Below are positions 13,399 to 59,425 of a DNA stretch of 64,000 nt, piece after piece. How positions within the stretch are numbered: the first letter of the stretch is position 1; the number at the start of each line of letters is the position of its first letter. The position numbers and the translations under genes are program-made. The notes under the pieces are model-generated. The model was not told the origin of the DNA. It saw only the letters and a program-made list of their open reading frames with translations, and did no database searches. Source of the stretch: Candidatus Woesearchaeota archaeon (GTDB lineage: Archaea; Nanobdellota; Nanobdellia; SCGC-AAA011-G17; ARS1403); the NCBI GenBank assembly GCA_016188065.1, contig JACPIN010000001.1, forward strand, positions 17,661-81,660. Direction: 5' to 3'.

Positions 13399-13456
13399 TA
13401 AGAAAAAAGAAAGAAAAAGAGGTTTTAAAGTTATTTGGAAAATAGCTAAATAAAAG

Positions 13457-13776
13457 CTAAGAAGGAATAATTTTAATCCCCTCTTTATCCTTGGCAATAA
13501 ATCCACGGGCTCCAGGTATTATGTTGTAATCCTCGACAACATCGCTAGGAATCCTTACAGCAATGCTATCCCCCATTTTGCAAAAGTTATTTCTTTAGCG
13601 CCACTCATCTTTCTATATCTGCCTGCTAATACTCTAAGCTGTTTCATATCCATAATCTCCTCGCTACAAGTTCTGCATTTAAACGCCTCAAATTCCACTC
13701 CGCCTTGCTTGATAGCATCCTTAATTTTTTCCATTTCCCCTTTGTTACATATCGGACACCCCATCTTAATTTTCAA
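13457..13776 (-). pseudogene. Zn-ribbon + AbrB/MazE-like DNA-binding protein, split by a 1-nt frameshift in a G5 run
   Basis: 13555-13776 encodes CPICN...CRTCSE...ITFAKWG and then stops. Frame +1 (13457-13576) continues ...GDSIAVRIPSDVVEDYNIIPG, which is the AbrB/MazE KWGxSxAVRIP motif. The junction is a GGGGG run at 13570-13574. Confidence 0.5.
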
Positions 13777-14439: not shown

Positions 14440-14554
14440 ATCTTACTTTCTTACAATAAGAATTTCTTACTTATAAATGTTTCGCTCTTAATCAACGATG
14501 AGAAAACATTTAAAAGACATGCTATCTATCAATTTCATAATGTTAAAAACATCA

Positions 14555-29063: not shown

Positions 29064-29792
29064 ATGAAAATCACGCCAGAATTATCAGAAATAAGTGGGA
29101 TCCATAGTGGAGATGGACACTTAAGGAGGGATAAAGAACTCGAAATTAGCGGGAGCTTTGAAGAAAAAGAATATTATGACACGAGGGTCATTCCTTTATT
29201 TAATAATTTCTTTAATTTATCTATAAAGGGAAGGTTTTTTACAAGTAAAGGAACATATGGTTTTTGGGTAGTCAACAAAGAAATAGGAAATACATTAAAG
29301 GAAATAGGATTCCCTTCAGGTAACAAAACCAAAACTGTAAAAGTCCCTAACATCATATTGAAGTCTAACAACAGTTCTATTAGAAGATCCTTCCTAAGAG
29401 GTTTATTTGACACAGATGGTTGCATGAGTTTTAATAAAAGAATTTATAATAAAAATCATTTCAAAAAAACCAAAAATTTCTATCCTACCATACTAATCGT
29501 GAGTATATCCAAAAATCTGATTAAGGGAGTAGATTTATTATGTAAAAAAGAAGGTTTTGAATCAAAAGTATACCTCCACATACCAAAAAAGAAAACAGAA
29601 AACATCCGTTATATAATGCAAATATCTGGGGAAAAATCTCTTCTAGATTGGATGGAAAAAATCTCCCCTAAAAATCAAATAAAAGTTTCTAGATTTAAGG
29701 TCTGGGAAAAATTTGGGCACTGTCCATCAAAAGCAACCTATAAAGAAAGACTAGAAATACTTAAAAGCCAGCAAATTAAAGATTTCTTGTAG
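29064..29792 (+). CDS. double-motif LAGLIDADG homing endonuclease-like protein (free-standing)
   Basis: Two LAGLIDADG motifs: ISGIHSGDGHL and FLRGLFDTDGCM. 242 aa. The stop codon overlaps the first nt of the tRNA. Confidence 0.7.
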   Translation: MKITPELSEISGIHSGDGHLRRDKELEISGSFEEKEYYDTRVIPLFNNFFNLSIKGRFFTSKGTYGFWVVNKEIGNTLKEIGFPSGNKTKTVKVPNIILKSNNSSIRRSFLRGLFDTDGCMSFNKRIYNKNHFKKTKNFYPTILIVSISKNLIKGVDLLCKKEGFESKVYLHIPKKKTENIRYIMQISGEKSLLDWMEKISPKNQIKVSRFKVWEKFGHCPSKATYKERLEILKSQQIKDFL

Positions 29793-29894
29793 GGCCTGTA
29801 GTATAACCTGGATAGTATATTCGGCTTCAAAGATTAACACTTTGTTAACTTGGCCAAGGACCGAAAGATCTCGGTTCAAATCCGGGCAGGCCCG
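29792..29894 (+). tRNA. tRNA-Arg(TCG) with a 29-nt intron at non-canonical position 35/36 (anticodon assignment tentative)
   Basis: Acceptor GGGCCTG/CAGGCCC, D-stem GTAT/GTAT (two G.U pairs), anticodon stem TTCGG/CCGAA, T-arm CTCGG-TTCAAAT-CCGGG. The insert 29829-29857 forms a relaxed BHB (H = GGCT/GGCC, plus a TTAACA/TGTTAA hairpin), giving loop CTTCGGA. Confidence 0.65.
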
Positions 29895-32451: not shown

Positions 32452-33093
32452 TTAAGATTTTATTAGCTGATTCCAATAGTTTACTATAAGAATAATTACC
32501 ACTTCCAGGCTTCCAGCAAAAATCAAATCACCAACGAATAAAAACATTCCAATAGAATAAGTTACAGAATCTTTACTATGTCCTGGAGTTTTAACAGCTT
32601 TTATTTTTCTATCATCAAGTTTTAATTCTTGATTATTCTTCAAATCATCTCCAGAATAAATTCCGATTCCGAATTCTTTCACGATTTTTTCTTTTCCATA
32701 AACATGATCGCCGTCTCCATGAGTCAGCAAAATAAATCTAGGGTTTAATTTTCTTTCTTTAATTTCTTTTATTATTCTTTCAGGAGATTGTGCAGTATCA
32801 ACAATGGCACAATTTTTGTCTTCATCAAAAACAACATACGCATTAACATGTCTACCATAAAATTCATTTCTAATATTGACAACCTTTAATCCGTCGTAGT
32901 TTTTTCCATAATCAAATGCTTTTGGTTTGTATTTTCCATCCTTAATTTTCTTCAAAGCCCTAACATTCAAATTCAGTTCTCTTGCAACTTCATCAATATC
33001 GCTGCTATCAATTTTCTTGTTCAAGCCTCTTTCAGCTTTCCTTATTATATCCTCGTAATTATCCTCTAAATCCATATCAAAATAAATTATCAA
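32452..33093 (-). CDS. metallo-beta-lactamase-fold hydrolase
   Basis: LLTHGDGDH (a variant of HxHxDH) and TPGHSKDS are MBL motifs. Confidence 0.6.
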   Translation of the reverse strand: MIIYFDMDLEDNYEDIIRKAERGLNKKIDSSDIDEVARELNLNVRALKKIKDGKYKPKAFDYGKNYDGLKVVNIRNEFYGRHVNAYVVFDEDKNCAIVDTAQSPERIIKEIKERKLNPRFILLTHGDGDHVYGKEKIVKEFGIGIYSGDDLKNNQELKLDDRKIKAVKTPGHSKDSVTYSIGMFLFVGDLIFAGSLEVVIILIVNYWNQLIKS

Positions 33094-34498
33094 GAAGCAT
33101 TAAAATCTTTCTGAATACTCCAATCTCTTCTCTATCCTCAGCATTTTCATCTTCTACCTTAACAAAAGAAATTTCATTTTCATATTTTTCAGTGATATTA
33201 GTTTTATTCTCGCTCAACATTTTTTCAGCCTCGTCTTTATCGCGAAATTCAAATTTATCATCAATTAGAATCTCATCTTTGCTTTCGCTTCCAAAGCTTT
33301 CAGAAACCTTGATTTCAGATTTATAGGTAAAATCTCCATTCAATTGCGGAACAGTTAAAATCCAATTAATCTTCTTTTCCTCATACGGCTTGAGTAAAAC
33401 AGCTTTGCTATTATCTCCTACAACTCCAGGAGCGCTTGTTACATAAACTAAAGTTGATAAATAATAATTCTGCAAATTTTTCACACTAACTTCGAAAGGT
33501 ACAAAGCTCCCTCCTTTAATTTTATCAAAAATAGCATCAGCTTTCAGCTCGACAAGAGGCAAAACTCTGTCCCCTTTTTCAACTATGCTTGTATTTAATT
33601 CTAAATTCTTCTCCTTTAAGCCGACTTTAATCGCCTTCCAAGAATATTCAACGCTTGGATCATTTGCACTTACCCCCTCGCTTAATTTCACATGCCCGGT
33701 ATCAACCCATCCATATTGCCCAAAAGTTACGTCAAAAGGAACCCAGCCATATCCTTGAAAATAAACTTCAGCCCATGCATGTGGAGCCCATCCTTCAGCA
33801 ACAGCGTCGCTATAGGCAATTCCGACAACGTATCTCACAGGAATATTCATGCTCCTCAAAAAGCTCACAAATAAATTAGTAATTTCATCGCAAACCCCCT
33901 GCCTGTTTTCCAAAACCCAGCTGCTCTTCTGTGTAGCATCTTCAGTTAAAGTGTTCAAGTCATATTTCACATTTATTCTAACCCATTCTGCAAGTTTGAA
34001 AGCTGCATCGTACAAGCTATCACTTCCTCTAGTTATCTCAATTGCCTTTTCTCTTATTTCATTGTTAATGTCGACTAGTTCAGTCTCTCTCACATAATTC
34101 TTGTGCTCTCTTATCAAAACAAGATTAGCAAATGGAACATCAGCAGGAATCTTAAATATCCTGTTCCACACTTTAACCTTGCTAGTGTACCCGAAATTTA
34201 TTCTTTCAGAGTCATCATCCCATTTGTATTCAATGTTATTTTTCATAACAACGCTGGCGCTTGGGTTATGAACCAAATTAAATTCAATCACATCCTGCCT
34301 GTAAGAGCTCTTTGGAAAAAGTCTTAAGTCAGCTGAAAAATAATCAAGCCTCGAGTTGGAAGTCCAGTAATCCAGAAGCACATCTCCATCAAGCCTCACT
34401 TCGATTACTTGGTGATCTAATTCGCTTTGGGCATAAACAGAAGGAAGAATTAATACATGCAATACAAGCAAAACTAAAATAGCTTTTTTTTCAAGCAT
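33077..34498 (-). CDS. secreted transglutaminase-like cysteine protease superfamily protein
   Basis: Signal peptide. A Cys-His-Asp triad context: GVCDEITNLF, HAWAEVY, PFDVT. Confidence 0.65.
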   Translation of the reverse strand: MLEKKAILVLLVLHVLILPSVYAQSELDHQVIEVRLDGDVLLDYWTSNSRLDYFSADLRLFPKSSYRQDVIEFNLVHNPSASVVMKNNIEYKWDDDSERINFGYTSKVKVWNRIFKIPADVPFANLVLIREHKNYVRETELVDINNEIREKAIEITRGSDSLYDAAFKLAEWVRINVKYDLNTLTEDATQKSSWVLENRQGVCDEITNLFVSFLRSMNIPVRYVVGIAYSDAVAEGWAPHAWAEVYFQGYGWVPFDVTFGQYGWVDTGHVKLSEGVSANDPSVEYSWKAIKVGLKEKNLELNTSIVEKGDRVLPLVELKADAIFDKIKGGSFVPFEVSVKNLQNYYLSTLVYVTSAPGVVGDNSKAVLLKPYEEKKINWILTVPQLNGDFTYKSEIKVSESFGSESKDEILIDDKFEFRDKDEAEKMLSENKTNITEKYENEISFVKVEDENAEDREEIGVFRKILMLLDNLF

Positions 34499-45369: not shown

Positions 45370-45957
45370 TTATTCCCAGAAATACGTCTTCTCAGCATCC
45401 TGTAAGAAATTTCTTCCGCCTTCCTCACTCAAACACTCATTGCTGATGCATAAATTGCTTTTACATTCATAACTGTTCTCACAGCTTCCTTCTTTCTGAA
45501 CTCTTAAAGCCTGGGTAAAGTCACAATATCTTCCAGCAACCCTCATGCCTACAGGCAGGCATTCTCCATTATAGCTGCATCCCTGGCTGCATTTTAGCCC
45601 CTCGCTCTTTTCTTTCATTTTGCAAACACCAAAGCCCCCCTCGTCAACGCATCCAAACTCGCAAAAGATTTCCTCAATCTTGCCATCGCTCCTAGTAGCA
45701 TCGCAATAATACTCTCCAAGCGTAGTCGAATTAACGCAAAAATCCCTTCTTGCTTTAGTTGGATCAAAGCTTCCAATGACATTGCCTCCAACCTCTGCTT
45801 GTACACCGGCATCAGTATCAACACAATCTACAATGTTGGAAGATGCCCTTCCAGTAAACATGCTGCTAAAACTTCCAGTTAGTCCAAGAATAAGTATAAT
45901 TGCAAAAACAAGAACAGAAATACCAATTAATTTCCCCTTCTCCATAATTTTAAGCAA
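45370..45957 (-). CDS. secreted Cys-rich protein
   Basis: Signal/TM N-terminus and 14 Cys residues in 195 aa. Confidence 0.35.
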   Translation of the reverse strand: MLKIMEKGKLIGISVLVFAIILILGLTGSFSSMFTGRASSNIVDCVDTDAGVQAEVGGNVIGSFDPTKARRDFCVNSTTLGEYYCDATRSDGKIEEIFCEFGCVDEGGFGVCKMKEKSEGLKCSQGCSYNGECLPVGMRVAGRYCDFTQALRVQKEGSCENSYECKSNLCISNECLSEEGGRNFLQDAEKTYFWE

Positions 45958-45992
45958 AATAAATATCTATAAATATGTTTCGTTTTATTTTT

Positions 45993-46073
45993 TTCAGCAG
46001 CAGGCTTTTATGATGCAGAAAGACAATTCCAGATGAGAAGGGGGATTTATTTTCTTATAGCTTTCTCTAACAT
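45993..46073. repeat. degenerate copy of the 3' end of the giant gene (direct repeat A)
   Basis: About 85% identical to 47902-47982. It would encode SYKKIN..., but is frameshifted. Confidence 0.7.
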
Positions 46074-46214
46074 TTGTCTATTTCGCTTAATATTTCCAAT
46101 ATTTTAGAAATACAATCATTTATTTATAAATAAATTAGCTTATTTTCAATATTTTATAAATAGAAAGATTTATATAAGTAATATAATATCCATTTCCATT
46201 ATTTTAGAAATAAA

Positions 46215-46853
46215 ATGTTTATAGAAAATTTAATAGGCTCAAAGGCAAAAGTAAAGATATTAAGGGTTTTGTCAGAAACAAGAACAGCTTATAATCTTAA
46301 TAATCTCAAAGCCGAGACAGAATTAAGTTTAGGCATCGTCCATAAAGCATCTGAGGAGTTAACAGAAGAAGGTTTATTGCTAAAAATTAAAGGTAATAGA
46401 AAAGAAAGGCTTTACAAATTCAATACAGACAGTCCTTTTGCATCTTCAATATTTGAATTATTTAAAGTTGAAAAAACAAGACAGAGAAAGGAAATAATTT
46501 TTATGCATACATGGTCGATCCTAGAAGATATAGTATCAAAAATAAAGAGTAAATCAATTTTGATAATTCTTTTTGGCAGTCAGGCGAGGGGAGATGCCAC
46601 GTTAAATAGCGATATAGATCTGCTCATCATGTCAAAAAATTCCAAAGAGGAAATCCTGGATTTAATAAGGGAAATAAAGGTAAAAAACAAAATAAATCCT
46701 ACGCTGCTTAGCCAAGCTGAATTTAACGAAGAAATTAAAAATAATACCCTGTTTTACAGAAATATAAAAAAAGATTCTGTAATATTATATATAAATTCTA
46801 AAATTAAAAAAACCATATCTGAATTTTTGGAAGATATACAATACAAAGGGTAA
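46215..46853 (+). CDS. wHTH-fused minimal nucleotidyltransferase (MNT)
   Basis: Winged helix plus LFGSQARGDATLNSDIDLLI. It is a paralog of 23427-23975. Confidence 0.65.
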   Translation: MFIENLIGSKAKVKILRVLSETRTAYNLNNLKAETELSLGIVHKASEELTEEGLLLKIKGNRKERLYKFNTDSPFASSIFELFKVEKTRQRKEIIFMHTWSILEDIVSKIKSKSILIILFGSQARGDATLNSDIDLLIMSKNSKEEILDLIREIKVKNKINPTLLSQAEFNEEIKNNTLFYRNIKKDSVILYINSKIKKTISEFLEDIQYKG

Positions 46854-46859
46854 TCGAAA

Positions 46860-47348
46860 ATGGAGATAGATAAAGAATTCAAAGAAAAATGTTTAAGTAA
46901 GAGAACAATAACTCAAGAGCCGAATGTAAGCCTTATAGCAGAAAAAGGATTAAGGAAAACGATAGCAGAACAGCATAAGAGCAATGCAGAATATTTTCTT
47001 GAAGCTGCCAAAAATCTGCTGAAAGGCCCGACCCCATTGCTTTCTATTCTAATAGGGCATTTTGCGATGGAGCATAAAGCTAATCAATTGCTTGCTCTGC
47101 ATGGCTATAAAGTCGAAAGCCATATCTGCACACAGATCGGTTTAAGCAGAATAGTGGAAAGGAAAGATTTAGCAAAAAAACTTAGTGACATTTTTGCTTT
47201 AAGGCAAAGCATTGGATACAGAATGACCCTTAAACAGAGTGAGGAAAGCAGAAAAGAAACTGAAAAAGCCATCAACGAAACAATAATCCCTTTCTTTGAA
47301 CAGATTGACAAACTAGCAAATGAGATTAAAGTTCTTTATATTCTTTAA
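46860..47348 (+). CDS. HEPN-domain protein
   Basis: 162 aa, helical. It lies downstream of the MNT in the usual HEPN/MNT arrangement. Confidence 0.5.
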   Translation: MEIDKEFKEKCLSKRTITQEPNVSLIAEKGLRKTIAEQHKSNAEYFLEAAKNLLKGPTPLLSILIGHFAMEHKANQLLALHGYKVESHICTQIGLSRIVERKDLAKKLSDIFALRQSIGYRMTLKQSEESRKETEKAINETIIPFFEQIDKLANEIKVLYIL

Positions 47349-47607
47349 GATAAATTTTATCGTGATGATCATAGTCTAAAAATTGTATAAATTCTTCTTG
47401 CTTATTATATCTAAAAACTAACACAAAGGATTTTCTGATATGAACTCTTTTCAAATTTTTCAAATCATACCTTAAAGGCTTATAGTGCTCAGGGTCAGAA
47501 TTAACGATATCTTTAACTTTATTGATGATTGCTTTAAAAGTTTCATGATCTTTTTTCTTAAGCTTTTCTAATATTTTCTTAAGGTCATCAGAGAAATCAT
47601 ATCTCAT
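47326..47607 (-). CDS. RelE/ParE (YoeB-like) toxin
   Basis: ...YKPLRYDLKNLKRVHIRKSFVLVFRY...FIQFLDYDHHDKIY. Confidence 0.6.
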   Translation of the reverse strand: MRYDFSDDLKKILEKLKKKDHETFKAIINKVKDIVNSDPEHYKPLRYDLKNLKRVHIRKSFVLVFRYNKQEEFIQFLDYDHHDKIYLKEYKEL

Positions 47608-47861: not shown

Positions 47862-50800
47862 TCAATTATCATTTTCTCCCACAACATCATTAACAAATAC
47901 ATTCAGCAGCAGGCTTTTATGATGAGGAAATACAATTCCAGACGGGAAAGGAGAATTTATTTTCTTATAGCTATCTATTACATCCTGCTCGACTTCGCTC
48001 CATAATATTTTGTCTTGCTTGCTTTTCTGTGCTATGCTTCTCATGATGTAAAATAAAACTCTATCATTAACATCTCCCTGCCCAATATTCTCATCACTCA
48101 CAAAGTAAGCTTTAGGAATTGTTCTTTGAACAGTGCAAACTCTTCCGAAGCCGCCACAGCCTCCCAAAAATATTAATTTCTTTTGCTGGCTTTGAACATC
48201 TGACGAAAATACCCTCAGCTCGCTAAAGCTATGTCCTCTATGAGAAACAATGTCTATATTAGGATCATTAACTGCTTCTTGCACATCATTCAAATCTTCA
48301 GTTAAAATAACCCTTAATTCAATTCCGTTATATCTTCCATTGCTCCTTCCATCAGTCAAGGTGCTATCGGGATTAACAGATATTACGGAAGTTTTTTCTT
48401 TCCGCTCAACAACTTTGAACTCAAATGACTTATCAAAGTTCCCCCGGGTTCTATCAATTTGCCCTTCTTGTGTAAAGTAAAGTTTTGCGGTCAACCGATT
48501 GTCCGAAAGCCATTCTTTAGGAACTACCGGCTCAAGAATTTCTGGCAACCTGCTTGAAATTTCAATTGCTCTCTGTTTATTCTTCTCGCTAAATTTATCT
48601 TTGTTTAGTTTTATGTGATAGCCAAAAACCGCTTTTTTTATTTTATCTGGAGGCAATTCTACAGTGTATTTAGCTGGATCATCAACACTAAGGTAGCCAT
48701 TCAATAAAAATTCCTCTATCTCTGGTTTGTATTGGGATAAATAAGGCTCATTAAATATAGCTTGGACAGTACTTACTAAAAGAACTCCATTATTTCTTAA
48801 TTTATCGATATCATCTTCTTGCAATGCTTTCTTTATAGAGCCAATCAAAAATTCAGGGTCTTTGTTAATAATGTCCTTCAGCTTGTTATAGTTAGCTAAA
48901 GTTAATGTGAATCCCAGAGCGTATTTCTGTTCAGGGTCAACTTCTTTTTTTATTTTGCTAATAAAGTCAGGATATCTTGGAGCAGGATAGTTTTGGCATT
49001 GCATAAGATTGTAACAATAAAGTTTTTCAAAACTGCTTGTATACAAATCTGCCCCGCCAAATGCCAATAAATAATAAACAGACCCTAAATCTAAATTCTG
49101 GCTTGTTGTAGTCCGGACAACATCGCTTCCATACTGTCCATCTTCCCTATTATGGAAACGATTAAGATTCACTGCCATATGTTTAAAAAACAAATCGTCT
49201 GGAACCTTTTTTCTATTAATTGCAGATGCCAGTGCTTCGCCTATCTGCTTAGAATACTGCGGGAGGGTATACCACGCTGAAAGTCGGGTTATGATAAGAC
49301 CAAGAATTTCATCTGTTTTTTCGTTTTTCAAGCCAGTAAGCAACACAGAGGTAACTTTGTCACTCCTTATGCCCTCCTCACCATGCAATGTCCTTCCCGT
49401 TAATAAAACTGCCATAGCCCTAACATTTGGGTCCTCACTCCTGATATCTTTATCCAAAGTATCATAGGTTATACGCTCCCCGGAGTAATATAATCTAATG
49501 TAAGCTAAAAGGTCAAGGATTACCTCTTTACTAATAGTTGGAAATTCAAAGCCCTCTTTTAGAATATTGGTCAATGCTGGATACGATTTATTAGACCAGA
49601 CCAGAGGAAGTAAGTTATTAAGAATGGAAGCTCTTACAGAATCCTCTTCTTTCTTGTCTTCCAAAAGTCTTAAGGCTATGCTTTCAATTTTTTCTCCTTG
49701 CAAAAATCCAGCAAAATTGTCTTCCTCTTCCTTTACGATATAGTGCGATAGAGGGATTACCCCATTAATTCTAATCTGTGAATCTTCATCTCGTAAATCG
49801 TGAAGAGACTTCAAAATTCCCTCATTATTTTGTAAATTTTTGCTCCACTTTATCTCCTCAAACTTCACACATTTATTAGTAACGCATAAGCTGTCCTCAT
49901 CCCAGCAATCCCTCTCTCCATTTTCAGTAACCAAAATAAAATCATCTTTGCAGTAAGGCAGGCAGACATTTTCTGTTTTAGCTAAACCAGCAACAGGCTT
50001 TCCCGCTCTCTTCTCAGTATTATATGGAACACAGCTTTCAGTTTCCTTTCCCAACAATCCATTCCAAATCTCCTTATTTATCATAACTAAAGAAACATAT
50101 TTTTTAGTTCCAAGAGGCAAATGGCATTTATTATTTGAATCTGGATTTGTAGTTATCTTTATTCTCTTATCAGCTAAAATCTCTTGCCATCCAGCATTTT
50201 CATTTCCAACACACTTCCTCCATCCCCCTACTCTCTTAGGCCCGGCATTGTAAGCGGCTAACGCTAACTCCTCACTTCCAAAAGCGTCTAATTGTTGTTT
50301 CAAATACAAAGAGCCAGCATGCAGTAAATTCATCCATTTAGCAGGTTTTTTATGGTGCTTGCCATCAAATAATTTGGCAGTATCGGGCAGGGTCTGCATT
50401 AAGCCATCAGCTCCAAATCCTCCTTTCGCATATTTTCTCCCGCTTGACTCTTTTGTAATAACAGCTAAAAGCAAAGATAAATCAATGTTCTCAATCTCAG
50501 ATACCTCTTTTATTTCATTAAATACTTCATTGTCTTTTTTTTCTAAATTCTTCTTGGTTTCTTCAACAATTCTCTGGCAGAACTCTTTTGGATTTCCGAA
50601 CACTTTAGCAAGACCTTTTACTGCTTTTCTTGCAAATGTAGGATTGTTTACATCGCATCCTATTTCATCTTTTCCATAATCAATAATAGCATTATAATCC
50701 TCCTCTGTTATCCATCTATGTTTTAAAGCTAAATCCAAATTCTCATTGTATAATTCAGCATTCCCATATTCTCCATTAATGGAATTATAAGCAATTTCAG

Positions 50801-53309
50801 GTTTGTATTTAATATGCTCTAATAAATAGGCAGCAAATTCCTCAATGTCTATGCACTGCGCAGGCCTGTAAGCTCCATTCATAGGGTTATCTTGGTTATT
50901 CTTCCATAAAGTAAAGCCTTCATAATCATTAAAAATATGCTCACTGCAAAAGTCTAGCGTCTCAAAAAATTCCTTATACTCCGGAATAAAATCAAATCTT
51001 AAACGTTCTCTGCTAACAAAATCCCTGATCAATTTATCCTTTATAAAAACATCAAATAAATCATTGCTTACAATAACATCAAACGCCTCTTCAGAGCTCA
51101 TTCCCTCTCTGTAAAAAGGCCTATACCGCAATACTTCTTTAAGAAACATCTTAGCAAGATTCTTTTCAATGGCAATTTGCTTAACCCTCTCATACACACC
51201 ATGGACATATTTTCCTTCTTCATCATAAATTATCTTATCATATTTCTCCCTCAGTTGATTTTGATAGGCATGAACATATTCGTGATATAGATCAGACTCT
51301 GGATTATAAGGATAGGTGCGCTCAGGATGCAGCAATGCATCTGACTCATAAAAGTCAACATATAATGTATTTTTACGAGGAATATAAAATGCCGCTACCG
51401 CCCCTCCTCTATCAACCGAGGATTTAGTCTCAAGCCTATAAAACATAGGCATCTCATCTTTAGTAACTAAATAAATCTTTAAGTTTTCAACCTTCAGCGG
51501 CTTGAACTTATTTTGGATAAGATAAAGAATGTCATCATTGAGCTGCTCAAGAACCTCTTTTTTAGCATCGTCTCTTGATACTCCATTAAGCACTATTCTT
51601 CTTTCAATATATCCCTCAGAATATCCGAGTTTAATAGAACATTTATTATCTTCAACAGTGCTTCCAGTAATCAAATCAGAATTTTTGTCATCGTAGCTGG
51701 CGCATAAAACATCAGTGGTTTTTATTTTGCTGGTATCTATCTCAGGCTCAAGAATTTTTCTTAATGATTCTAAATCGAGCTCGGCTTTTCTTTTATCGCT
51801 TTCAGGTTCAATGATTTCAAAAGTTTCAGGATCATAATAAATTCTGTCATAAATTTCAAAGGGTTTTCCAAAAAGACCCTCTTTTCCTTCTATACCAAAA
51901 GATTCTCCTTCCAGATTAAAAATATCATAATAAGAAATATACGAACCATTTTCATTTTGACTTTTAGACAATTTATATGTTCCCATAATCCCTACACTTC
52001 CTACAATCCCAAGTTCTTCTACAATCCCAAGTTCTTCTTCAATCCCACGTGCATCATAGAATCTAGCTTCACCACCGTATTTATCAATATAGTTAATTAG
52101 ATCCTGTAAAGATAGGTTTGTTCGAGTTTTATAATCGGGAATGTTTGCTTTAAATTGTGATATAAAATCATTTATTTTGTAATAATAGATTTCGTCTTTG
52201 CTATCACTTGGTCTATAATCAGATATACCGAAAGTATTATGCTGCTGTGGTAAACCTAAATAAAATCTCCATGCATCTTCACGTCGATTATTCGATAATT
52301 TCCTCTCTTTCAAAAGGTTAAAAACAAATTCTCTTAGTTTCTCATCTCTTCCTATTCCATACCCATAAGGTACAATTCCTTTATAAAGCAATTCGCTAAC
52401 ACATGGTAAATAAGCCTCTCTCTGCTCTCGAGTAATCCCCTTTTCAGCAAGTTCCTTCCTTGCACGTTCCTTCATCTCCTCAAAAGAATATTCAGAAGGT
52501 TTAAGATCAGAAAATACTCGTGTATTATCCACTTCAACAGGGCATGTCTCAACTAAAACTCCTTCCAAAGTTTTCCTCGGCTTCGCAATTCTCACAACCC
52601 CAGGAACAATCTCTTTCTGCGCAGGAATTAAAGAAACAGGTTTTCCTTCATTTCTATTATCAAAGAAAACCCTTATCTTAATTCCATAATCATTGTAGTC
52701 AGTATAGCTTCCTCTTTCATATCTTAAAATTCTCTTCTCATTCCTAGTTCCAGTTCCAAAAGGCAATGTATAAATTACTTCGGTATTGTCGTAAACTTCA
52801 ACAGACTCATCTTGCTTAGTAAACACACTTCTGTAAATTATCTTATCAGGAGTATGCACATAATATTTAGGATTGTTAGGAAATACAAATTTAGAATTAT
52901 CTTTAATCGTGATAGAGTAAGCATTTATGTTTTCAGCTCTCTCGCCAACAGGAACAGGCTGCGGAATTGCAATTGGTTTCATATTAATCGGATCAAGAAC
53001 TTGTTGAAATGATACAGTTACCTCAGTATTATGCTCATATGTCTCATACCATACAATAGAAAACTGTAAAATCTGTTTTCCTAAAGGTGGATTTATAAAA
53101 ATATATTGTCCGTTAGAATCTGTTACAGTTTTTTTATCAGTACCTTTAATAGCAACTTGAACTCCTTTTAGAGGTTGGTCATTCTCATCCAAAACTGTTC
53201 CACCAACAGCATGAGAGATCCCCTCAGGACTCTCTCCTACAATCTGGCTTTCGCTTAAAGGAATAAAAAATAACATCCCAAGAATTAAAATAAAAACTAA
53301 TTTATTCAT
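47862..53309 (-). CDS. giant secreted multidomain protein (CarboxypepD_reg-like, HExxH metalloprotease motif, lytic transglycosylase, HEAT-like repeats, C-terminal His/Cys module)
   Basis: 1815 aa. Signal peptide; GTVLDENDQPLKGVQVAIKG...DSNGQYIF; LYHEYVHAYQ; the SLT domain LLLAVITKESSGRKYAKGGFGADGLMQTLPD...AAYNAGP; and the C-terminal ...SHRGHSF...FLGGCGGFGRVC. Confidence 0.7.
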   Translation of the reverse strand: MNKLVFILILGMLFFIPLSESQIVGESPEGISHAVGGTVLDENDQPLKGVQVAIKGTDKKTVTDSNGQYIFINPPLGKQILQFSIVWYETYEHNTEVTVSFQQVLDPINMKPIAIPQPVPVGERAENINAYSITIKDNSKFVFPNNPKYYVHTPDKIIYRSVFTKQDESVEVYDNTEVIYTLPFGTGTRNEKRILRYERGSYTDYNDYGIKIRVFFDNRNEGKPVSLIPAQKEIVPGVVRIAKPRKTLEGVLVETCPVEVDNTRVFSDLKPSEYSFEEMKERARKELAEKGITREQREAYLPCVSELLYKGIVPYGYGIGRDEKLREFVFNLLKERKLSNNRREDAWRFYLGLPQQHNTFGISDYRPSDSKDEIYYYKINDFISQFKANIPDYKTRTNLSLQDLINYIDKYGGEARFYDARGIEEELGIVEELGIVGSVGIMGTYKLSKSQNENGSYISYYDIFNLEGESFGIEGKEGLFGKPFEIYDRIYYDPETFEIIEPESDKRKAELDLESLRKILEPEIDTSKIKTTDVLCASYDDKNSDLITGSTVEDNKCSIKLGYSEGYIERRIVLNGVSRDDAKKEVLEQLNDDILYLIQNKFKPLKVENLKIYLVTKDEMPMFYRLETKSSVDRGGAVAAFYIPRKNTLYVDFYESDALLHPERTYPYNPESDLYHEYVHAYQNQLREKYDKIIYDEEGKYVHGVYERVKQIAIEKNLAKMFLKEVLRYRPFYREGMSSEEAFDVIVSNDLFDVFIKDKLIRDFVSRERLRFDFIPEYKEFFETLDFCSEHIFNDYEGFTLWKNNQDNPMNGAYRPAQCIDIEEFAAYLLEHIKYKPEIAYNSINGEYGNAELYNENLDLALKHRWITEEDYNAIIDYGKDEIGCDVNNPTFARKAVKGLAKVFGNPKEFCQRIVEETKKNLEKKDNEVFNEIKEVSEIENIDLSLLLAVITKESSGRKYAKGGFGADGLMQTLPDTAKLFDGKHHKKPAKWMNLLHAGSLYLKQQLDAFGSEELALAAYNAGPKRVGGWRKCVGNENAGWQEILADKRIKITTNPDSNNKCHLPLGTKKYVSLVMINKEIWNGLLGKETESCVPYNTEKRAGKPVAGLAKTENVCLPYCKDDFILVTENGERDCWDEDSLCVTNKCVKFEEIKWSKNLQNNEGILKSLHDLRDEDSQIRINGVIPLSHYIVKEEEDNFAGFLQGEKIESIALRLLEDKKEEDSVRASILNNLLPLVWSNKSYPALTNILKEGFEFPTISKEVILDLLAYIRLYYSGERITYDTLDKDIRSEDPNVRAMAVLLTGRTLHGEEGIRSDKVTSVLLTGLKNEKTDEILGLIITRLSAWYTLPQYSKQIGEALASAINRKKVPDDLFFKHMAVNLNRFHNREDGQYGSDVVRTTTSQNLDLGSVYYLLAFGGADLYTSSFEKLYCYNLMQCQNYPAPRYPDFISKIKKEVDPEQKYALGFTLTLANYNKLKDIINKDPEFLIGSIKKALQEDDIDKLRNNGVLLVSTVQAIFNEPYLSQYKPEIEEFLLNGYLSVDDPAKYTVELPPDKIKKAVFGYHIKLNKDKFSEKNKQRAIEISSRLPEILEPVVPKEWLSDNRLTAKLYFTQEGQIDRTRGNFDKSFEFKVVERKEKTSVISVNPDSTLTDGRSNGRYNGIELRVILTEDLNDVQEAVNDPNIDIVSHRGHSFSELRVFSSDVQSQQKKLIFLGGCGGFGRVCTVQRTIPKAYFVSDENIGQGDVNDRVLFYIMRSIAQKSKQDKILWSEVEQDVIDSYKKINSPFPSGIVFPHHKSLLLNVFVNDVVGENDN
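47902..47982. repeat. direct repeat B (authentic 3' end of the giant gene)
   Basis: Partner of 45993-46073. Confidence 0.7.
51990..52050. repeat. in-frame 18-bp tandem repeat (about 3 copies) inside the giant gene
   Basis: ACAATCCCAAGTTCTTCT x2 plus partial copies. It encodes EELGIVEELGIV. Confidence 0.6.
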
Positions 53310-54658
53310 CTGCCGCCCCTTTCAACTATTTTCCAGTAGCCGCCTTTTGCAGGGCCAATTCTTTTTAACAGGCCTTTTTTCTTTAATTTTGAAATATTCT
53401 TATCAATTGCCGTAGTGCTGATTCCTATCCTCTCAGATAATTCTTGTTTTGAAATTTTTTGATTCTTTGAAATTAGGGATAAGATTTTTCTTTGAGTTTC
53501 TACCAACCCTTCTACCAACCCTTCTACCAACCCTTCTACTGCATCTATTTTTGGTCTATAAAAAATAATCCTGAAAAAATCATTAGTTTCAAATTTAACT
53601 TTTATTCCTCTTTGCTTAACAAGATTTTTGATTCTATTGATGCCAGAACCAACCTTTTCAATTAAATTCAACCTATGGAATATATCAAACAATAGGGGGT
53701 TTCTGGGAATGCTAATTTTGCCTAACTCTTTCCTATCAAAAAGAAGTTTTCCTTTATTTGTAATTTCAACCCTATCATCAAATATTTCCACAAATATACC
53801 AAACCTGTCTTCAAAATAATCCCTATGGATTATAGAGTTGATTATCGCTTCTCTTAAAGCCTCATAAGGTATTTCTGGAATTTCTTTTCTTGGGCCATAT
53901 CCCTTTATCTCATATTCCAATCTTAAATGCTGTTTTAAAAAAGCAAATGCATCTTCATAATTTCTTAGTAAATCATTTTTGAAATCTTTTCTATCAATAA
54001 TGTCTACCTTTTCTTCGCCTTTGAATAAAACACAAGTAATGAAATTTTGCCTAAAAAACTTTTCCGGATTCTTAGCAAACAATAAAACTCCCGAATTATT
54101 CAACATAAACCTTTTATTGAAAGACTCTCCAAAGGAAAGATTGATTAAAATCTCCTTGATAGGAATTACTTTAGAAATATTACTTCTTCTTAGAAACTCT
54201 TTGAATTTATTCTTATCAAAATCTTTTGGGAAATTGAACTCTTTATTTAGCTGCTCATCGAATTTAACTTTTCCAACCTCGCGAATTAGCTCAACAATTT
54301 CATCCCTCTTCATCTTCTGGGAATTTGGACCTTGCCTCAAGTAAAATCCTTCTTTGCATTTGTATGGTTTGTCTTTTCCTTCTTCAACATGGATTATCAA
54401 GATGTTTTCAAGTTCTTCCAATTTAATTTTTATCTTCGGATCGCAATTATTTGCTATATCCTGAATTTCCGATTTTATCTTATTTGTTGTTTTTATACCT
54501 TTTATGTTTCCATTATCTGTCACTCCCAAAAATATTCTTCCTCCTTCTGAGTTTGCAAAAGCAACAAGCTCTTTATCTAACTTATTTATCGATTCTTTGA
54601 ATTCTAACTTCAATCCTTCTCCTTCCTGCAGTATAAAATTTAATTCTTTTTTATCCAT
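53306..54658 (-). CDS. AlbA_2 (Schlafen-like) domain / HATPase / wHTH putative transcriptional regulator
   Basis: LKLEFKESINKLDKELVAFANSEGGRIFLGVTDNGNIKGI is the AlbA_2 signature. The C-terminal wHTH is ISKQELSERIGISTTAIDKNISKLKKKGLL. Confidence 0.6.
   Translation of the reverse strand: MDKKELNFILQEGEGLKLEFKESINKLDKELVAFANSEGGRIFLGVTDNGNIKGIKTTNKIKSEIQDIANNCDPKIKIKLEELENILIIHVEEGKDKPYKCKEGFYLRQGPNSQKMKRDEIVELIREVGKVKFDEQLNKEFNFPKDFDKNKFKEFLRRSNISKVIPIKEILINLSFGESFNKRFMLNNSGVLLFAKNPEKFFRQNFITCVLFKGEEKVDIIDRKDFKNDLLRNYEDAFAFLKQHLRLEYEIKGYGPRKEIPEIPYEALREAIINSIIHRDYFEDRFGIFVEIFDDRVEITNKGKLLFDRKELGKISIPRNPLLFDIFHRLNLIEKVGSGINRIKNLVKQRGIKVKFETNDFFRIIFYRPKIDAVEGLVEGLVEGLVETQRKILSLISKNQKISKQELSERIGISTTAIDKNISKLKKKGLLKRIGPAKGGYWKIVERGGR
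53501..53539. repeat. in-frame 12-bp tandem repeat (TACCAACCCTTC x3.25)
   Basis: It encodes (EGLV)4 in the linker before the C-terminal wHTH. Confidence 0.6.
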
Positions 54659-55663
54659 CTACACAACTCCTATCCTGTCAATATAGTAATAATACTGGCT
54701 TGCAGGCCAAGTACTTGTTCCAGAGCCAGCTATCAAGTATGCTTTTCCATTTTCAACAGGTACTTTAACCTCGCCGCTTCCAGCGCCGTATCCATTGAAA
54801 TTTATTCTAGTTTCTCCAATTTTGTATGCATAAGTATCAAATCCGTCTTTTAATTTGGGCCATAAACCAGCACCATATCCAACATTATGTCCAGATTTAA
54901 AAAGATAAGAAACAGTTATCTCTTTTGCACCATCAGGAGCTTGAAACACAAACAGCTCAGTATTGCTTCCTAAACTTTGAGCAACGAAACCATCTTCTCT
55001 AGCAATGGCCTCATATTCCTCATCGCTGAATTCAAATGTTTCATCATCTTTAATAACTTCATCAGCAGTTACCCTTAACCTATCTTTCTTCTGATCCCAC
55101 TTATCCCTGAATTTATCATAATTAAAGTGATATGCTCTTAATAACTTGAAGTCAGTTGGCTTAGTAGCCTCATCGCCCAAGCTGTAAATGCTTTTAGATT
55201 CCTCAGGTAGTTTACATCCCTCTCCAAAATAACTCCTTAAAACTTCTTTATCTTTTTCACTCCAAAATAATTTATCATTATCAAAATCATATTTTTTCAG
55301 CATATTTGCATAAGTTGAAGCAGACAATTTTCCAGCATTATATTGTTTTCTTAATTCTTCAATATCCGCATCAGCTTTTTCAAAATCCTTTTCATCTACG
55401 CATCCATTATTATCAAAGTCACCAATTAATTTTCCTTTATCAAAATCTTCAGCAAAAATAAAAAAGTCCTCAACATCTATTTTTCTGTTTTTATCCAGGT
55501 CAAATTTTTCATTATCTTTATTTACATTTTTCTGATAGTTATCGGCAAACAAAAAGAAATCATCAAAATCAACTTTCCCATCATTATTGAAATCGGAGTT
55601 TAAAGCAAAGGCTGCACTGATTAAAATTAAAAATATAAATATTAAAGCACCTTTTTTTAACAT
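54659..55663 (-). CDS. secreted dockerin-domain protein
   Basis: A signal peptide is followed by DFNNDGKVDFDDFFLFA...FDLDKNRKIDVEDFFIFA (a dockerin pair), a third DFDNNGCVDEKDF repeat, and a ~200-aa C-terminal domain. Confidence 0.55.
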   Translation of the reverse strand: MLKKGALIFIFLILISAAFALNSDFNNDGKVDFDDFFLFADNYQKNVNKDNEKFDLDKNRKIDVEDFFIFAEDFDKGKLIGDFDNNGCVDEKDFEKADADIEELRKQYNAGKLSASTYANMLKKYDFDNDKLFWSEKDKEVLRSYFGEGCKLPEESKSIYSLGDEATKPTDFKLLRAYHFNYDKFRDKWDQKKDRLRVTADEVIKDDETFEFSDEEYEAIAREDGFVAQSLGSNTELFVFQAPDGAKEITVSYLFKSGHNVGYGAGLWPKLKDGFDTYAYKIGETRINFNGYGAGSGEVKVPVENGKAYLIAGSGTSTWPASQYYYYIDRIGVV

Positions 55664-56263
55664 TCAACCAAACACCTCTATAGTTTTAGCTTTAACCTTA
55701 TACTTCTCCAGTAATTTAAAGATTTCTTTTCTGTATTGGACAGGCAGCATAATACAACTCTTGCCAAGCTTTTTGCCATCATACTTATTCAATATACCCT
55801 CATAAGATTTATTTCCGACTCTAAAGCCATAAAGCTTATTAAGAAAAGCCCCTCTATTTTTTCCTACCTCGTCCCAAAAAATAATAATAAATTTCTTTAC
55901 ATCAGAAGTTTTTTCTCTTAGTTCGTATGCTCCGTATAAAACAATGCCTGTAGAAGCAATTGAGGTATGAAGATCCTTCCATTCTTTCAAATCTCCTATT
56001 TTAATATCAAAATCATTGCTAATCCCCTTTAATTTAAACAGGGATGCCTCTCTGCTTTCATAAAATTTTTCCGAAACATCTCTTATCTCATTTTCAAATT
56101 TTTTGGTTTTCTTTTTCACCTCGATAAATAAATCAATATCGCTTTCCTTTGTCCCTTCATCTCTTGCAACAGAGCCGTAAAGGATTACTTTTTCTACATT
56201 GCCTACACTCTTTAGATTACTCAAAAGATAGGATACAAAATAACTAGCATATTGTTTCAGCAT
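55664..56263 (-). CDS. nucleotidyltransferase (MNT-like) with C-terminal extension
   Basis: VILYGSVARDEGTKESDIDLFI is the NTase GS...DxD motif. Confidence 0.6.
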   Translation of the reverse strand: MLKQYASYFVSYLLSNLKSVGNVEKVILYGSVARDEGTKESDIDLFIEVKKKTKKFENEIRDVSEKFYESREASLFKLKGISNDFDIKIGDLKEWKDLHTSIASTGIVLYGAYELREKTSDVKKFIIIFWDEVGKNRGAFLNKLYGFRVGNKSYEGILNKYDGKKLGKSCIMLPVQYRKEIFKLLEKYKVKAKTIEVFG

Positions 56264-56667
56264 TTCACAATCTCCTTCAATTTGAAAAATAAATTAATTT
56301 TGTCTTGTAAAACCGTCTCGCTTGCAGGAGCTCCATAAGCCAAATCATCTCTTTTTAGTTCAATTCTGCAGATGATCTCAACAACTTCGTCGATTTTTTC
56401 AAGCGACTTTATAGGAGAAGTTATCTGTTTTTGCAAGATCTCCAAAACCCTTTCTTTCTTTCTTTTAAACCATGTATGATCTATTTTAGATCCTTCTTTC
56501 ATCACATCCAGCTTATGAAAATACAACTCTAGAAGATTAACTGCTCCTAAAGAAAGGGAAAAAGCAAGCCTTCTCTGATGCATGAGCAATCCATTTTTAT
56601 CATTCAAGGCAACTTCTATTTCATCTAATACCTCTTTCAAAGCTTCTTCATGCCTTTCTCTCCTCAT
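56257..56667 (-). CDS. helical partner protein of the NTase (HEPN-like?)
   Basis: 136 aa, overlapping the NTase start. No clean Rx4-6H motif is visible. Confidence 0.3.
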   Translation of the reverse strand: MRRERHEEALKEVLDEIEVALNDKNGLLMHQRRLAFSLSLGAVNLLELYFHKLDVMKEGSKIDHTWFKRKKERVLEILQKQITSPIKSLEKIDEVVEIICRIELKRDDLAYGAPASETVLQDKINLFFKLKEIVKC

Positions 56668-56781: not shown

Positions 56782-59262
56782 TTATTCTAAATATATCGCA
56801 GGTTTCCCAGCTTTTGCTTTCGCAGCTTTCTTCTCAGGATCATATTTATTCTTGTCATTTACAGAAAATATTTTAATTTCAAGATTCGTTTTCATGGAAA
56901 TAGTTTCAATATTGTCCTTGTAAATTTTTTCTTCTTTCGGCAAAGTGTAAACAAAGCATTTCTTGACATCTTTCTTAATTAATTTAACAACATGGTTGAT
57001 GTCCTCGATAATTTTCTCAGTCTGCTCTTCCTCTTTCTCCAGGCTTTCATCAATCTTGCTTTCATCAACATCAGGCCATTCAGCGAGGCATACATACCCC
57101 TCTCCTTTCCATAGCTCCTCTGCAAGATGGGGAGCAAAACAGCTTAGCATAATCAAAATTTTTCCAAAGCTGGTTTCAAAAACTTTCAGGGATACATTTT
57201 CCTTATTGTTGTAAATAAAATTAGTAAGCTGCATTAATCTGCTGATAGCCAAATTGAATTTAAATTCTTCTATATCTAAAGCTACCTCCTTAATAGTTCT
57301 ATTTAATTTGCTTTCAAGTAATTTGTCTTTAATGCTTGATTTAACTTTTACTCTCTCTTTAAATGAATAAATTTTTCTTAAAAATCTGTAAACACCATCT
57401 ATAGCCTCATCATCCCATTCTTTATCCTTATCAGGGGCAGATAAAAACAGCAAATAAGTGCGCAGTGTGTCAGCGCCATAGTTATCAACAATGCTCATAG
57501 GATCCACTATGTTTCCCCGGCTCTTGCTCATTTTCTCCCCGCCTTTGTTTATCATGCCCTGATTAAAGAGATTTATCACAGGCTCATCAATCTTCAGCAA
57601 TCCCAAATCTCTCAAAGCCTTGGTAAAGAATCTGCAGTACAGCAAATGCATAACCGCATGCTCAGCGCCGCCAATATAATAATCAAGAGGAACCCAGTAA
57701 TCTACTTTTTTAGAATCAAAAATTTTTTTATCGTTTTTATTGTCGCAATATCTTAAGAAATACCAGCTAGAATCAATGAAGCTGTCCATTGTGTCTGTTT
57801 CTCTTCTCGCCTTTCCACTGCATTTACTGCATCGAGCATTCACAAACTTCTCATTTCTAGCCAACGGGTTCCCTTTCCCAGAAAATTTCACATCCTCAGG
57901 AAGTAAGACTGGAATCTCAGCAGGAACAGCACCGCATTTTTCACAGTAAATAATAGGTATTGGAGTGCCCCAGTATCTCTGTCTAGAAATAAGCCAATCT
58001 CTCAATTTATATTGTACCATTTTTCTTCCCAATTTTTTCTCTTCCAAGTATTTGGAAATCTCAGTAGAAGCTTCAAGGTTTTTCTTGCCGTTAAACTTTT
58101 TATCAGAGTTGACAATTATCCCTGGTTCAATATAAGCCTTCATCATTTTTTCAGGGTCTAAATCATGGTTTTCGGGTTTAATCACGATCTTTATCGGCAG
58201 CTTGTATTTCTTAGCAAATTCAAAATCTCTTTGGTCATGAGCAGGAACCGCCATCACTGCACCTGTCCCATATTCAAGTAAAACAAAATTAGCAATATAA
58301 ATAGGGACATCATCTCTATTAACAGGATTGATGGCATATTTTCCAATAAATAAGCCTTCTTTCTCTTTATCCTCGGCAGTTCTCTCAAACTTCTCTTCTA
58401 ATACAACTTTATCAATAAAGTCCTTAGTTTTTTTCTCATACATAGTTCCCTTAACAAGCTCAGTTACCAGGGGATTTTCAGGGGCTAAAACCATAAAAGT
58501 AACCCCCCATAAAGTATCAGGCCTAGTGGTAAATACTTTTAATTTTTCATTGCTTCCTTTTAGCTTGAAATCAATTTCAGTTCCCTGGCTTCTGCCGATC
58601 CAATTCTCTTGCATGAGCTTAATTCTATGTGGCCATCCATCTAATTTCTTCAAATCACTTAATAGCTCATCAGCATATTTTGTTATGCGCAAAAACCACT
58701 GCTCTAATTGCTTTATCTCGACTTTACTACGGCATCTCCAACACTCGCCGTCTTCAACCTGCTCATTGGCAAGCACAGTTCCGCAGCTATCACACCAGTT
58801 GGCAGGAGCTTTTGTTCTATAAGCCAGGCCTTTTTCAAAAAATTTCAAAAATAGCCATTGATTCCATTTGTAATATTTGACATCGCAAGTTTTAATCAGC
58901 CTATTCCAATCATAACTCAGCCCAAGCCTCTTCTGTTGATAAAGAAAATTTTGGATGCTTTTTTCAGTATATTTTCTAGGATGCACTCCTTCTTTTATCG
59001 CAGCATTTTCAGCAGGCAGGCCAAATGCATCATAGCCCATAGGATATAAAACAGAAAACCCTTTCAATCTTTTATACCTTGCAAAAACATCGCCTATAGA
59101 ATAATTAATAGCATGGCCCATATGTAAGCCGTAAGATGAAGGGTATGGAAAAAACTCAACTATGTAGCATTTTTCTTTCTTTCTATTTTCTTCAGCCTCA
59201 AATACTTTGTCTTTCTCCCATTTTTTCTGCCACTTCAATTCAATATCCCGAAACTCTTTCAT
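56782..59262 (-). CDS. leuS: leucyl-tRNA synthetase, bacterial type
   Basis: HMGH (PYPSSYGLHMGHAINYSIGD) and KMSKS (GGEKMSKSRGN). The N-terminal ~230 aa are near-collinear with bacterial LeuRS. 826 aa. Confidence 0.9.
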   Translation of the reverse strand: MKEFRDIELKWQKKWEKDKVFEAEENRKKEKCYIVEFFPYPSSYGLHMGHAINYSIGDVFARYKRLKGFSVLYPMGYDAFGLPAENAAIKEGVHPRKYTEKSIQNFLYQQKRLGLSYDWNRLIKTCDVKYYKWNQWLFLKFFEKGLAYRTKAPANWCDSCGTVLANEQVEDGECWRCRSKVEIKQLEQWFLRITKYADELLSDLKKLDGWPHRIKLMQENWIGRSQGTEIDFKLKGSNEKLKVFTTRPDTLWGVTFMVLAPENPLVTELVKGTMYEKKTKDFIDKVVLEEKFERTAEDKEKEGLFIGKYAINPVNRDDVPIYIANFVLLEYGTGAVMAVPAHDQRDFEFAKKYKLPIKIVIKPENHDLDPEKMMKAYIEPGIIVNSDKKFNGKKNLEASTEISKYLEEKKLGRKMVQYKLRDWLISRQRYWGTPIPIIYCEKCGAVPAEIPVLLPEDVKFSGKGNPLARNEKFVNARCSKCSGKARRETDTMDSFIDSSWYFLRYCDNKNDKKIFDSKKVDYWVPLDYYIGGAEHAVMHLLYCRFFTKALRDLGLLKIDEPVINLFNQGMINKGGEKMSKSRGNIVDPMSIVDNYGADTLRTYLLFLSAPDKDKEWDDEAIDGVYRFLRKIYSFKERVKVKSSIKDKLLESKLNRTIKEVALDIEEFKFNLAISRLMQLTNFIYNNKENVSLKVFETSFGKILIMLSCFAPHLAEELWKGEGYVCLAEWPDVDESKIDESLEKEEEQTEKIIEDINHVVKLIKKDVKKCFVYTLPKEEKIYKDNIETISMKTNLEIKIFSVNDKNKYDPEKKAAKAKAGKPAIYLE

Positions 59263-59337: not shown

Positions 59338-59425
59338 GGGCCCGTAGCTCAGTTTGGATAGAGCACTAGCCTTCTAAAGGTTTGATGAAAGCTAGGGGTC
59401 GCGCGTTCAAATCGCGTCGGGCCCG
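59338..59425 (+). tRNA. tRNA-Arg(TCT) with a 13-nt intron at canonical 37/38
   Basis: Acceptor GGGCCCG/CGGGCCC, D-arm GCTC-AGTTTGGATA-GAGC, anticodon stem CTAGC/GCTAG, T-arm GCGCG-TTCAAAT-CGCGT. The insert 59377-59389 has a BHB with a 3/4-bp central helix. Mature loop CTTCTAA. Confidence 0.7.

Follow-up and report, generated by a model that had tools for sequence, protein, structure and literature searches.

Large extracellular proteins that carry a soluble lytic transglycosylase (SLT) domain are described as characteristic of small-genome Woesearchaeota and Pacearchaeota (PMC8204110; PMC9723730). Castelle 2021 (PMC8204110) puts such proteins at up to 3,000 amino acids (aa; family fam00969) and proposes that they attach to the walls of bacteria and break them down, three genomes having yielded earlier cases (cited there as Rinke 2013 and Castelle 2015); Vigneron 2022 (PMC9723730) reports 'large lytic murein transglycosylase' genes from five Woesearchaeota metagenome-assembled genomes (MAGs) and proposes a predatory, 'vampiristic' lifestyle. 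Archaeal peptidoglycan hydrolases, which are especially frequent in Nanoarchaeota, have been found experimentally to kill bacteria (Strock et al. 2025, PMC12352652). Little is understood of the means by which DPANN archaea fasten on other cells and draw food from them, or of whether bacteria are the hosts of some. Here we describe a giant gene in a stretch of 64,000 nucleotides (the window) from a Candidatus Woesearchaeota archaeon (assembly GCA_016188065.1, contig JACPIN010000001.1, positions 17,661 to 81,660 of the forward strand), together with its 1815-aa product, the giant protein.

The giant protein resembles the fam00969-type proteins in coming from a Woesearchaeota genome, in being very large and predicted extracellular, in carrying an SLT domain of family GH23, and in the role proposed for it, a likeness taken from the published descriptions. 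Because large DPANN SLT proteins have been published, the headline finding, a secreted large SLT protein in Woesearchaeota, is already known. However, the available parts of the fam00969 account mention the SLT domain alone, whereas the giant protein also has a domain shared with phages, an orphan region with an HExxH motif, and a C-terminal unit with a conserved His and Cys. Phage virion-associated peptidoglycan hydrolases and polyvalent proteins (Iyer et al. 2017, PMC5512222) are likewise mosaics of wall-degrading and other enzymes in one very long chain, and the shared domain occurs in such phage proteins beside SLT, lysozyme or PG_binding modules; in contrast to these, the giant gene is chromosomal in an archaeon, encodes a predicted signal peptide, is host-like in composition and bears no sign of particle packaging. 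The Omnitrophota 'Archaeovorin' proteins (West-Roberts et al. 2023, preprint) are also giant secreted multi-enzyme proteins of ultra-small host-dependent organisms, some with SLT domains, and the C-terminal His/Cys module of the giant protein recurs in Omnitrophota proteins of 2739 and 5611 aa; Archaeovorins, however, come from bacteria, exceed the giant protein at least tenfold in length and contain numerous transmembrane segments as well as SecA-like domains, and the preprint mentions no caspase, CHAT or separase-like module. Judging from sequence features, and with a probability of roughly 60%, we read the giant protein as the product of a chromosomal Woesearchaeote gene and as a Sec-exported, multi-module effector whose extracellular target would be a bacterial envelope, that of a partner or of prey.

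Results

Modules and export of the giant protein

The 1815-aa open reading frame (ORF) at 47862-53309 is real, and translation, Pfam matches and motif positions bore out all the motifs and coordinates given for it in an initial annotation made from the letters alone; gene calling on a contig of a separate assembly (Logan SRR12113422_519609) gives exactly the same protein. Its parts, in order from the N-terminus and preceded by the gene as a whole, are these:

47862-53309, minus strand: whole giant gene, 1815 aa plus stop, ATG start (ORF list and translation)
53244-53309, minus strand: signal peptide or N-terminal anchor, aa 1-22 (MNKLVFILILGMLFFIPLSESQ; Kyte-Doolittle)
53010-53207, minus strand: CarboxypepD_reg-like (Ig-like) beta-sandwich, aa 35-100 (PF13715, E 1.1e-13; PF13620, E 5.6e-10; both past the cut-offs)
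52518-53009, minus strand: unannotated N-terminal region, aa 101-264 (BLASTP; no Pfam match)
51750-52517, minus strand: phage-shared domain, aa 265-520 (BLASTP, phmmer, tblastn)
50514-51749, minus strand: orphan region with HEYVH, aa 521-932 (HEYVH at aa 676-680, 51270-51284)
50199-50513, minus strand: SLT/GH23 lytic transglycosylase domain, aa 933-1037 (PF01464)
49953-50198, minus strand: Cys-containing linker, aa 1038-1119 (Cys 1062, 1093 and 1116; no family match)
48498-49952, minus strand: alpha-helical repeat region of the C-terminal unit, aa 1120-1604
47865-48497, minus strand: alpha/beta domain with invariant His1693 (48231-48233) and Cys1718 (48156-48158), putative separase/CHAT-like (clan CD-like) cysteine protease

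Kyte-Doolittle hydropathy exceeded 1.6 in 19-residue windows at the N-terminus only (aa 1-25), and the same scan over all 1815 aa found no second membrane span. This single hydrophobic stretch fits a Sec signal peptide on an otherwise soluble exported protein, and we infer from it that the N-terminal segment is a Sec signal. Pfam, NCBIfam and PHROGs, searched over the whole protein and six sub-regions, matched the CarboxypepD_reg and SLT domains alone; the former (PF13715 and PF13620) agrees with the N-terminal CarboxypepD_reg-like domain that had been annotated at the outset. By BLASTP, aa 4-312 resemble a single protein, a 1669-aa NCBI entry (P0002, 56% identity). Further cysteines (1120, 1135, 1142 and 1147) lie just past the linker.

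The SLT domain and its catalytic motifs

The SLT domain matched PF01464 at 63.6 bits (cut-off 21.3; E 1.6e-17) over profile positions 3-111 of 117, and it also matched NCBIfam and PHROG lysin models. Its motifs are TKE954S (Glu954 codon at 50448-50450), GLMQ (aa 969-972) and AYNAGP (aa 1019-1024). Among PDB sequences, Slt70 and Pseudomonas aeruginosa Slt (GH23; 1QSA, 5OHU, 6FBT) matched the domain, with ES, GLMQ and AYNAGP aligned and TKE954S opposite the QES of P. aeruginosa Slt; the ES motif of soluble lytic transglycosylases holds the catalytic Glu. The Pfam and PDB alignments thus uphold the SLT signature that had been read from the sequence, with its conserved catalytic Glu (Glu954) and its fit to the GH23/SLT profile. 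Unlike in Slt70, the superhelical U and L domains are absent, and the SLT domain lies mid-way in an 1815-aa archaeal protein.

A domain shared with phage virion-module proteins

The initial annotation had passed over two features, the phage-shared domain at aa 265-520 and the start, at about aa 1120, of a conserved C-terminal unit. The conserved blocks of the former are RxDAwRfYLGLPQ, GxYISYYDxWDL and GKPFEIYDRIYYDP. BLASTP and phmmer found it in about 17 giant proteins of 1000-2700 aa (P0001, P0003-P0016 and P0018 among the matches), some of which also bear SLT, phage lysozyme, PG_binding_1, ART-PolyVal or LPD38 domains. By tblastn it matched six IMG/VR viral loci (L005, L034, L038, L052, L053 and L013), and the close relatives of one of the giant proteins (P0007) sit on IMG/VR viral contigs of about 100 kb. 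At L005, a locus of an uncultivated phage, a single 989-aa ORF, which directly adjoins virion structural genes, combines the domain with one that is SLT-like and annotated 'endolysin / lytic tail / internal virion protein'. No match was returned by tblastn against 50,697 deposited phage genomes, the domain being found on IMG/VR contigs only, and an AlphaFold (AF2) model of aa 265-520 was confident in part only. Because of the company that the domain keeps in phages, we propose a role for it in binding or crossing the wall, which is what this association suggests.

The domain also occurs on a 65-kb Logan contig (SRR22868765; L003, 10001-28133), towards the C-terminal end of a 2710-aa protein with, by eye, the look of a tape measure protein. 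Next to this gene, in a block of genes that all run the same way and for which no Pfam hits were precomputed, come the genes for a 2705-aa protein and for an ORF of at least 1379 aa.

A conserved C-terminal unit with an invariant His and Cys

Residues 1120-1809 align as one conserved unit with another protein (P0027) at 44% identity. A HMMER search over 1.84 billion cluster representatives returned 217 relatives of this unit at E ≤ 0.001, 40 of them at E ≤ 1e-30, and in nearly all the match lies at or near the C-terminus. Most relatives have 500-1300 aa, with a few of 2739, 4269 and 5611 aa, and nearly all are called 'hypothetical protein'; the organisms named for them are Pacearchaeota, Nanoarchaeota/Nanoarchaeia, Omnitrophota, Myxococcota and Chitinophagaceae. 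Many family members start with signal peptides, and EF-hands are present in some. The giant protein has SHRGHS at aa 1689-1694 and LGGCGG at aa 1715-1720, and conservation within the family is marked: His1693 and Cys1718 are present in all 145 representatives that cover both positions, Arg1691 in 143 and Gly1692, beside the His, in 129 of these, and Gly1716, Pro1795, Trp1770 and Asn1748 are nearly invariant.

An AlphaFold model of the unit, built from a 40-sequence alignment (pLDDT 94.1, pTM 0.92), consists of all-helical repeats followed by an alpha/beta domain, an order reminiscent of the helical-repeat region and protease domain of separase and TPR-CHAT. In the model, His1693 (residue 324) lies two residues past the strand at 318-322 and Cys1718 (residue 349) three past the next strand, at 343-346. 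Clan CD proteases are recognised by a His and a Cys at the C-terminal ends of successive strands (beta3 and beta4) with a Gly beside the His (PMC4357240), and the model has this arrangement; the spacing from His to Cys is 25 residues here vs. 26 in Caenorhabditis elegans separase (H1014/C1040; PMC4626109). Foldseek gave no significant PDB match for the model, clan CD members taking 10 of the 13 top places and two helical-repeat proteins and one periplasmic binding protein the others.

For this part of the protein, sequence searches returned no Pfam family in 55 members, in a second, partly overlapping set of 40 or in the family consensus, and at permissive E-values none of the clan CD families (Pfam CHAT, Peptidase_C14, C25, C50 and others) appeared in the same material. 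PDB sequences and Pfam searched against the C-terminal profile or consensus gave spurious helical-repeat or sub-threshold matches only, and PADLOC reported nothing for the module. The family signature is HRGHS ... GSCGG, whereas the reference motifs of clan CD proteases are GHG ... GCSS or CHAT motifs. Unlike separase (MEROPS C50) and the CHAT proteases (Csx29 'Craspase', SAVED-CHAT, DdvA), the unit is thus without sequence-profile similarity to clan CD, and it is predicted to be extracellular. On the strength of the model we nevertheless think it likely that the C-terminal unit is a clan CD-like cysteine protease. The caspase/CHAT-like His-Cys dyad proposed initially was a good suggestion: the two residues are invariant and lie after strands in the model, whereas a clan CD profile match was not found. 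More tentatively, and with the odds somewhat against it, the C-terminal ~430-690 residues may represent an undescribed family of separase/CHAT-like (clan CD-like) cysteine proteases with the signature HRGHS-(about 20 aa)-GSCGG, always placed at the C-terminal end, or close to it, of long proteins that otherwise vary, and predicted in many members to be secreted. Judged by the members with a named source organism, the family would be one of DPANN archaea, Omnitrophota, Myxococcota and Bacteroidota. Effectors that attack envelopes would use the module for processing or for killing, and this archaeon would have joined it to a phage-particle-type pair of SLT and aa 265-520 domains.

A relative in a Woesearchaeota MAG (CAZDKM010000061.1; L002, 1890-3920) is about 93-95% identical over the HEYVH (zincin-like) and SLT regions and only about 80% over the C-terminal module, and a second, 30-residue copy of the extreme C-terminus lies downstream of it; the C-terminal module could have diverged faster or been rearranged there.

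The HEYVH region

Between the phage-shared and SLT domains, aa 521-932 contain HEYVH, the sole HExxH in the giant protein; at least one HExxH occurs in 2.8% of composition-preserving shuffles. The region has a single homolog, P0001 (37% identity), a 1794-aa protein with the same modules as the giant protein in another order and no SLT, which reads LYHEFVYAYQNQ at this place: here the motif is HEFVY, its second His changed to Tyr within an otherwise conserved LYHEφVxAYQNQ block. A homolog search with aa 520-935 on their own returned nothing, and no metallopeptidase family of Pfam, NCBIfam or PHROG matched aa 521-932 even at E up to 10. With hhalign, the region aligned to the HExxH regions of phage giant proteins over a 14-residue motif only, at a probability of 0.5%. 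A low-confidence model (pLDDT mostly 30-60) places HEYVH in a helix after a beta-sheet, followed by a helix with a conserved Glu (IEEFAAYL, aa 822-829), and Foldseek found no zincin fold with it; alignment depth behind this model was almost nil over aa 520-800. The HEYVH region is probably not a zinc protease. The HExxH motif that had prompted a zincin assignment is present where it was reported, but with no profile or fold match and a Tyr for the second His in the sole homolog, a divergent zincin is conceivable but not supported.

Host lineage and neighbouring genes

The window encodes the archaeal markers TFE (TFIIE-alpha), a GatD/GatE pair, NreA and a PACE-CTERM S-layer protein; two of its tRNAs, read by eye, have anticodon-arm introns, and a giant-gene fragment, 95% identical, is present on a Candidatus Woesearchaeota MAG contig. 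It also holds bacterial-type genes for AspRS (14498-16309), LeuRS (56782-59262) and queuine tRNA-ribosyltransferase (TGT, 12382-13506), which accord with the published theme of bacterial systems in DPANN, queuosine synthesis included. We considered whether the contig, with its bacterial-type LeuRS and AspRS, could be bacterial, from the candidate phyla radiation (CPR); TFE, GatD/E, NreA, the intron-bearing tRNAs and the Woesearchaeota MAG match rule this out and indicate a DPANN archaeon in which, as is common, genes of bacterial type are mixed in. The GC content of the giant gene (0.353) is close to the window mean (0.356) and its codon usage is also typical of the window, so we see no sign of the recent horizontal acquisition that had been suggested for it.

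The giant gene is placed between the LeuRS and AlaRS genes, within a small variable island of conflict-type genes that spans 45370-47607 and 53306-56667 around it. The island holds a pair of nucleotidyltransferase (NTase) and HEPN genes (46215-47348) and a second pair encoding an HEPN-like protein of 136 aa and an NTase of 199 aa (55664-56667). As initially annotated, an AlbA_2/winged helix-turn-helix (HTH) gene and one for a dockerin-like protein precede the giant gene (Pfam, translation):

53306-54658, minus strand: upstream AlbA_2 (Schlafen-like), HATPase_c_4 and winged HTH gene, 450 aa (Pfam)
54659-55663, minus strand: upstream secreted 334-aa protein with dockerin/EF-hand-like Ca-binding repeats (three DxDxDG-type repeats, signal-like N-terminus, weak EF-hand match)

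By ORF coordinates, the AlbA_2 gene and the giant gene have 4 nt in common, where the former stops and the latter starts; the product of the AlbA_2 gene matches PADLOC pAgo-associated and CARF/Csa3-like HTH models. At the locus of the homolog P0001 (contig L004), a 71%-identical copy of the 136-aa HEPN-like gene, with a similar NTase gene after it, is found at a distance of about 1 kb from P0001. The HEPN-like/NTase pair is thus common to both loci, but gene order differs and the upstream gene is unrelated, and we rejected conserved synteny.

Elsewhere in the window, two more large secreted-looking proteins are encoded on the minus strand at 24061-28439, one of 963 aa with a Dockerin_1 match and one of 496 aa with a MopE-type metal-binding motif; with the 334-aa dockerin-like protein, their sequences suggest a cohesin/dockerin-style extracellular assembly. 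A 473-aa transglutaminase-core protein (33077-34498, minus strand) might bear on wall biology, pseudomurein endoisopeptidases being of the same fold class. ARAGORN calls a 90-nt 'tRNA-Pyl (CTA)' at 59338-59425 (plus strand), which by eye looks instead like a tRNA-Arg(UCU) in which the anticodon stem is CTAGC/GCTAG and about 13 nt of intron follow the loop CTTCTAA. Rfam scores it as a tRNA at 56 bits, and an amber suppressor is improbable. A LAGLIDADG_3 homing-endonuclease-like ORF (29064-29792, plus strand) ends exactly at the start of a 103-nt tRNA (29792-29894), which Rfam finds and ARAGORN misses and which, from its length, we infer to carry an intron.

Discussion

We reason that, after Sec export, the SLT domain of the giant protein would cut the beta-1,4 bonds between N-acetylmuramic acid (MurNAc) and N-acetylglucosamine (GlcNAc) in the murein of a neighbouring bacterium, leaving 1,6-anhydro-MurNAc ends and opening the sacculus locally, while the phage-type domain at aa 265-520 would help to bind or penetrate the wall, as in the phage lysin ORF. 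The C-terminal helical-repeat and caspase-like unit would be a cysteine protease that cuts its own precursor into functional fragments, in the manner of clan CD autoprocessing domains, or alternatively one that acts on the target, on proteins of its envelope or on peptide stems, and attachment may be the task of the CarboxypepD_reg domain and of the dockerin-like protein encoded nearby. An attack on the wall of a bacterial host or prey is a reasonable role for the giant protein, and the idea has already been published for such proteins (PMC8204110; PMC9723730). Two observations weigh against our reading of it as an envelope-attacking effector. The domain at aa 265-520 has no Pfam or PHROG match and no Foldseek relative in the PDB that would point to a function; and free-living Chitinophagaceae also have the C-terminal family, which is thus no hallmark of episymbionts or predators.

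The giant protein might instead be a scavenging exoenzyme, released into the medium to digest murein and protein necromass for amino sugars and peptides with no attack on a host, and the recycling of cell compounds by DPANN archaea has been proposed by Vigneron et al. (PMC9723730). A set of glycan-cutting and protease-like domains suits nutrient uptake equally well, and no anchor to the archaeal surface was found, the hydrophobic N-terminal segment being the only candidate. Nevertheless, anhydro-muropeptides need dedicated recycling enzymes, of which none were seen in the 64-kb window, a span too small to settle the point, and one module is common to a phage virion-module lysin. Phage virion lysins act locally on intact walls, and on balance we regard scavenging as unlikely. 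We give still less credence to a target in a wall polymer (pseudomurein or some other glycan) on the cells of an archaeal host, or in the cell's own envelope during division or cell-cell contact. It is true that the known DPANN hosts are archaea (PMC8204110) and that West-Roberts et al. (bioRxiv 10.1101/2023.11.21.568195) speculate that the SLT-like domains of giant Omnitrophota proteins could act on pseudomurein; archaeal peptidoglycan hydrolases, however, occur almost entirely outside the pseudomurein-making lineages (Strock et al., PMC12352652). The full murein-type motif set is kept in the SLT domain, and the window encodes the PACE-CTERM S-layer protein, with no Mur-ligase-like genes seen among the ORFs scanned. 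Pseudomurein, which has beta-1,3 bonds to N-acetyltalosaminuronic acid, resists lysozyme-type enzymes, and this also counts against an archaeal target.

The mosaic of an SLT domain, an HExxH motif and a phage-shared domain further resembles the polyvalent proteins (PMC5512222), and the giant gene could be the remnant of a virus or mobile element, encoding such a protein for packaging and delivery with DNA and not a cellular effector. ART-PolyVal or LPD38 domains in some of the matching proteins, the flanking NTase/HEPN pairs and Schlafen-like gene, which are typical of variable islands, and the reordering of the same modules in P0001 all point this way. Set against them are the predicted N-terminal signal peptide and the CarboxypepD_reg domain, a composition equal to that of the window, the absence of matches in the 50,697 phage genomes, and a chromosomal position in the LeuRS-AlaRS interval with no capsid, terminase or integrase seen among the window ORFs scanned, and we consider a mobile remnant very improbable.

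The giant protein adds little to the published observation of big secreted SLT proteins in small-genome Woesearchaeota and Pacearchaeota, and a specialist would be unsurprised by the SLT domain itself. As far as the searched literature and libraries go, what appears to be new is the C-terminal His/Cys family with its separase/CHAT-like model, and the domain common to phage virion-module lysins. Three leads follow. The SLT domain has intact catalytic motifs and is expressible and testable on sacculi. The His/Cys module, confidently modelled yet an orphan by sequence and known from 217 cluster representatives in both archaea and bacteria, could prove a new protease family. The third is the domain in common with phage virion-module lysins, which suggests that wall-breaching parts have been swapped between phages and these archaea.

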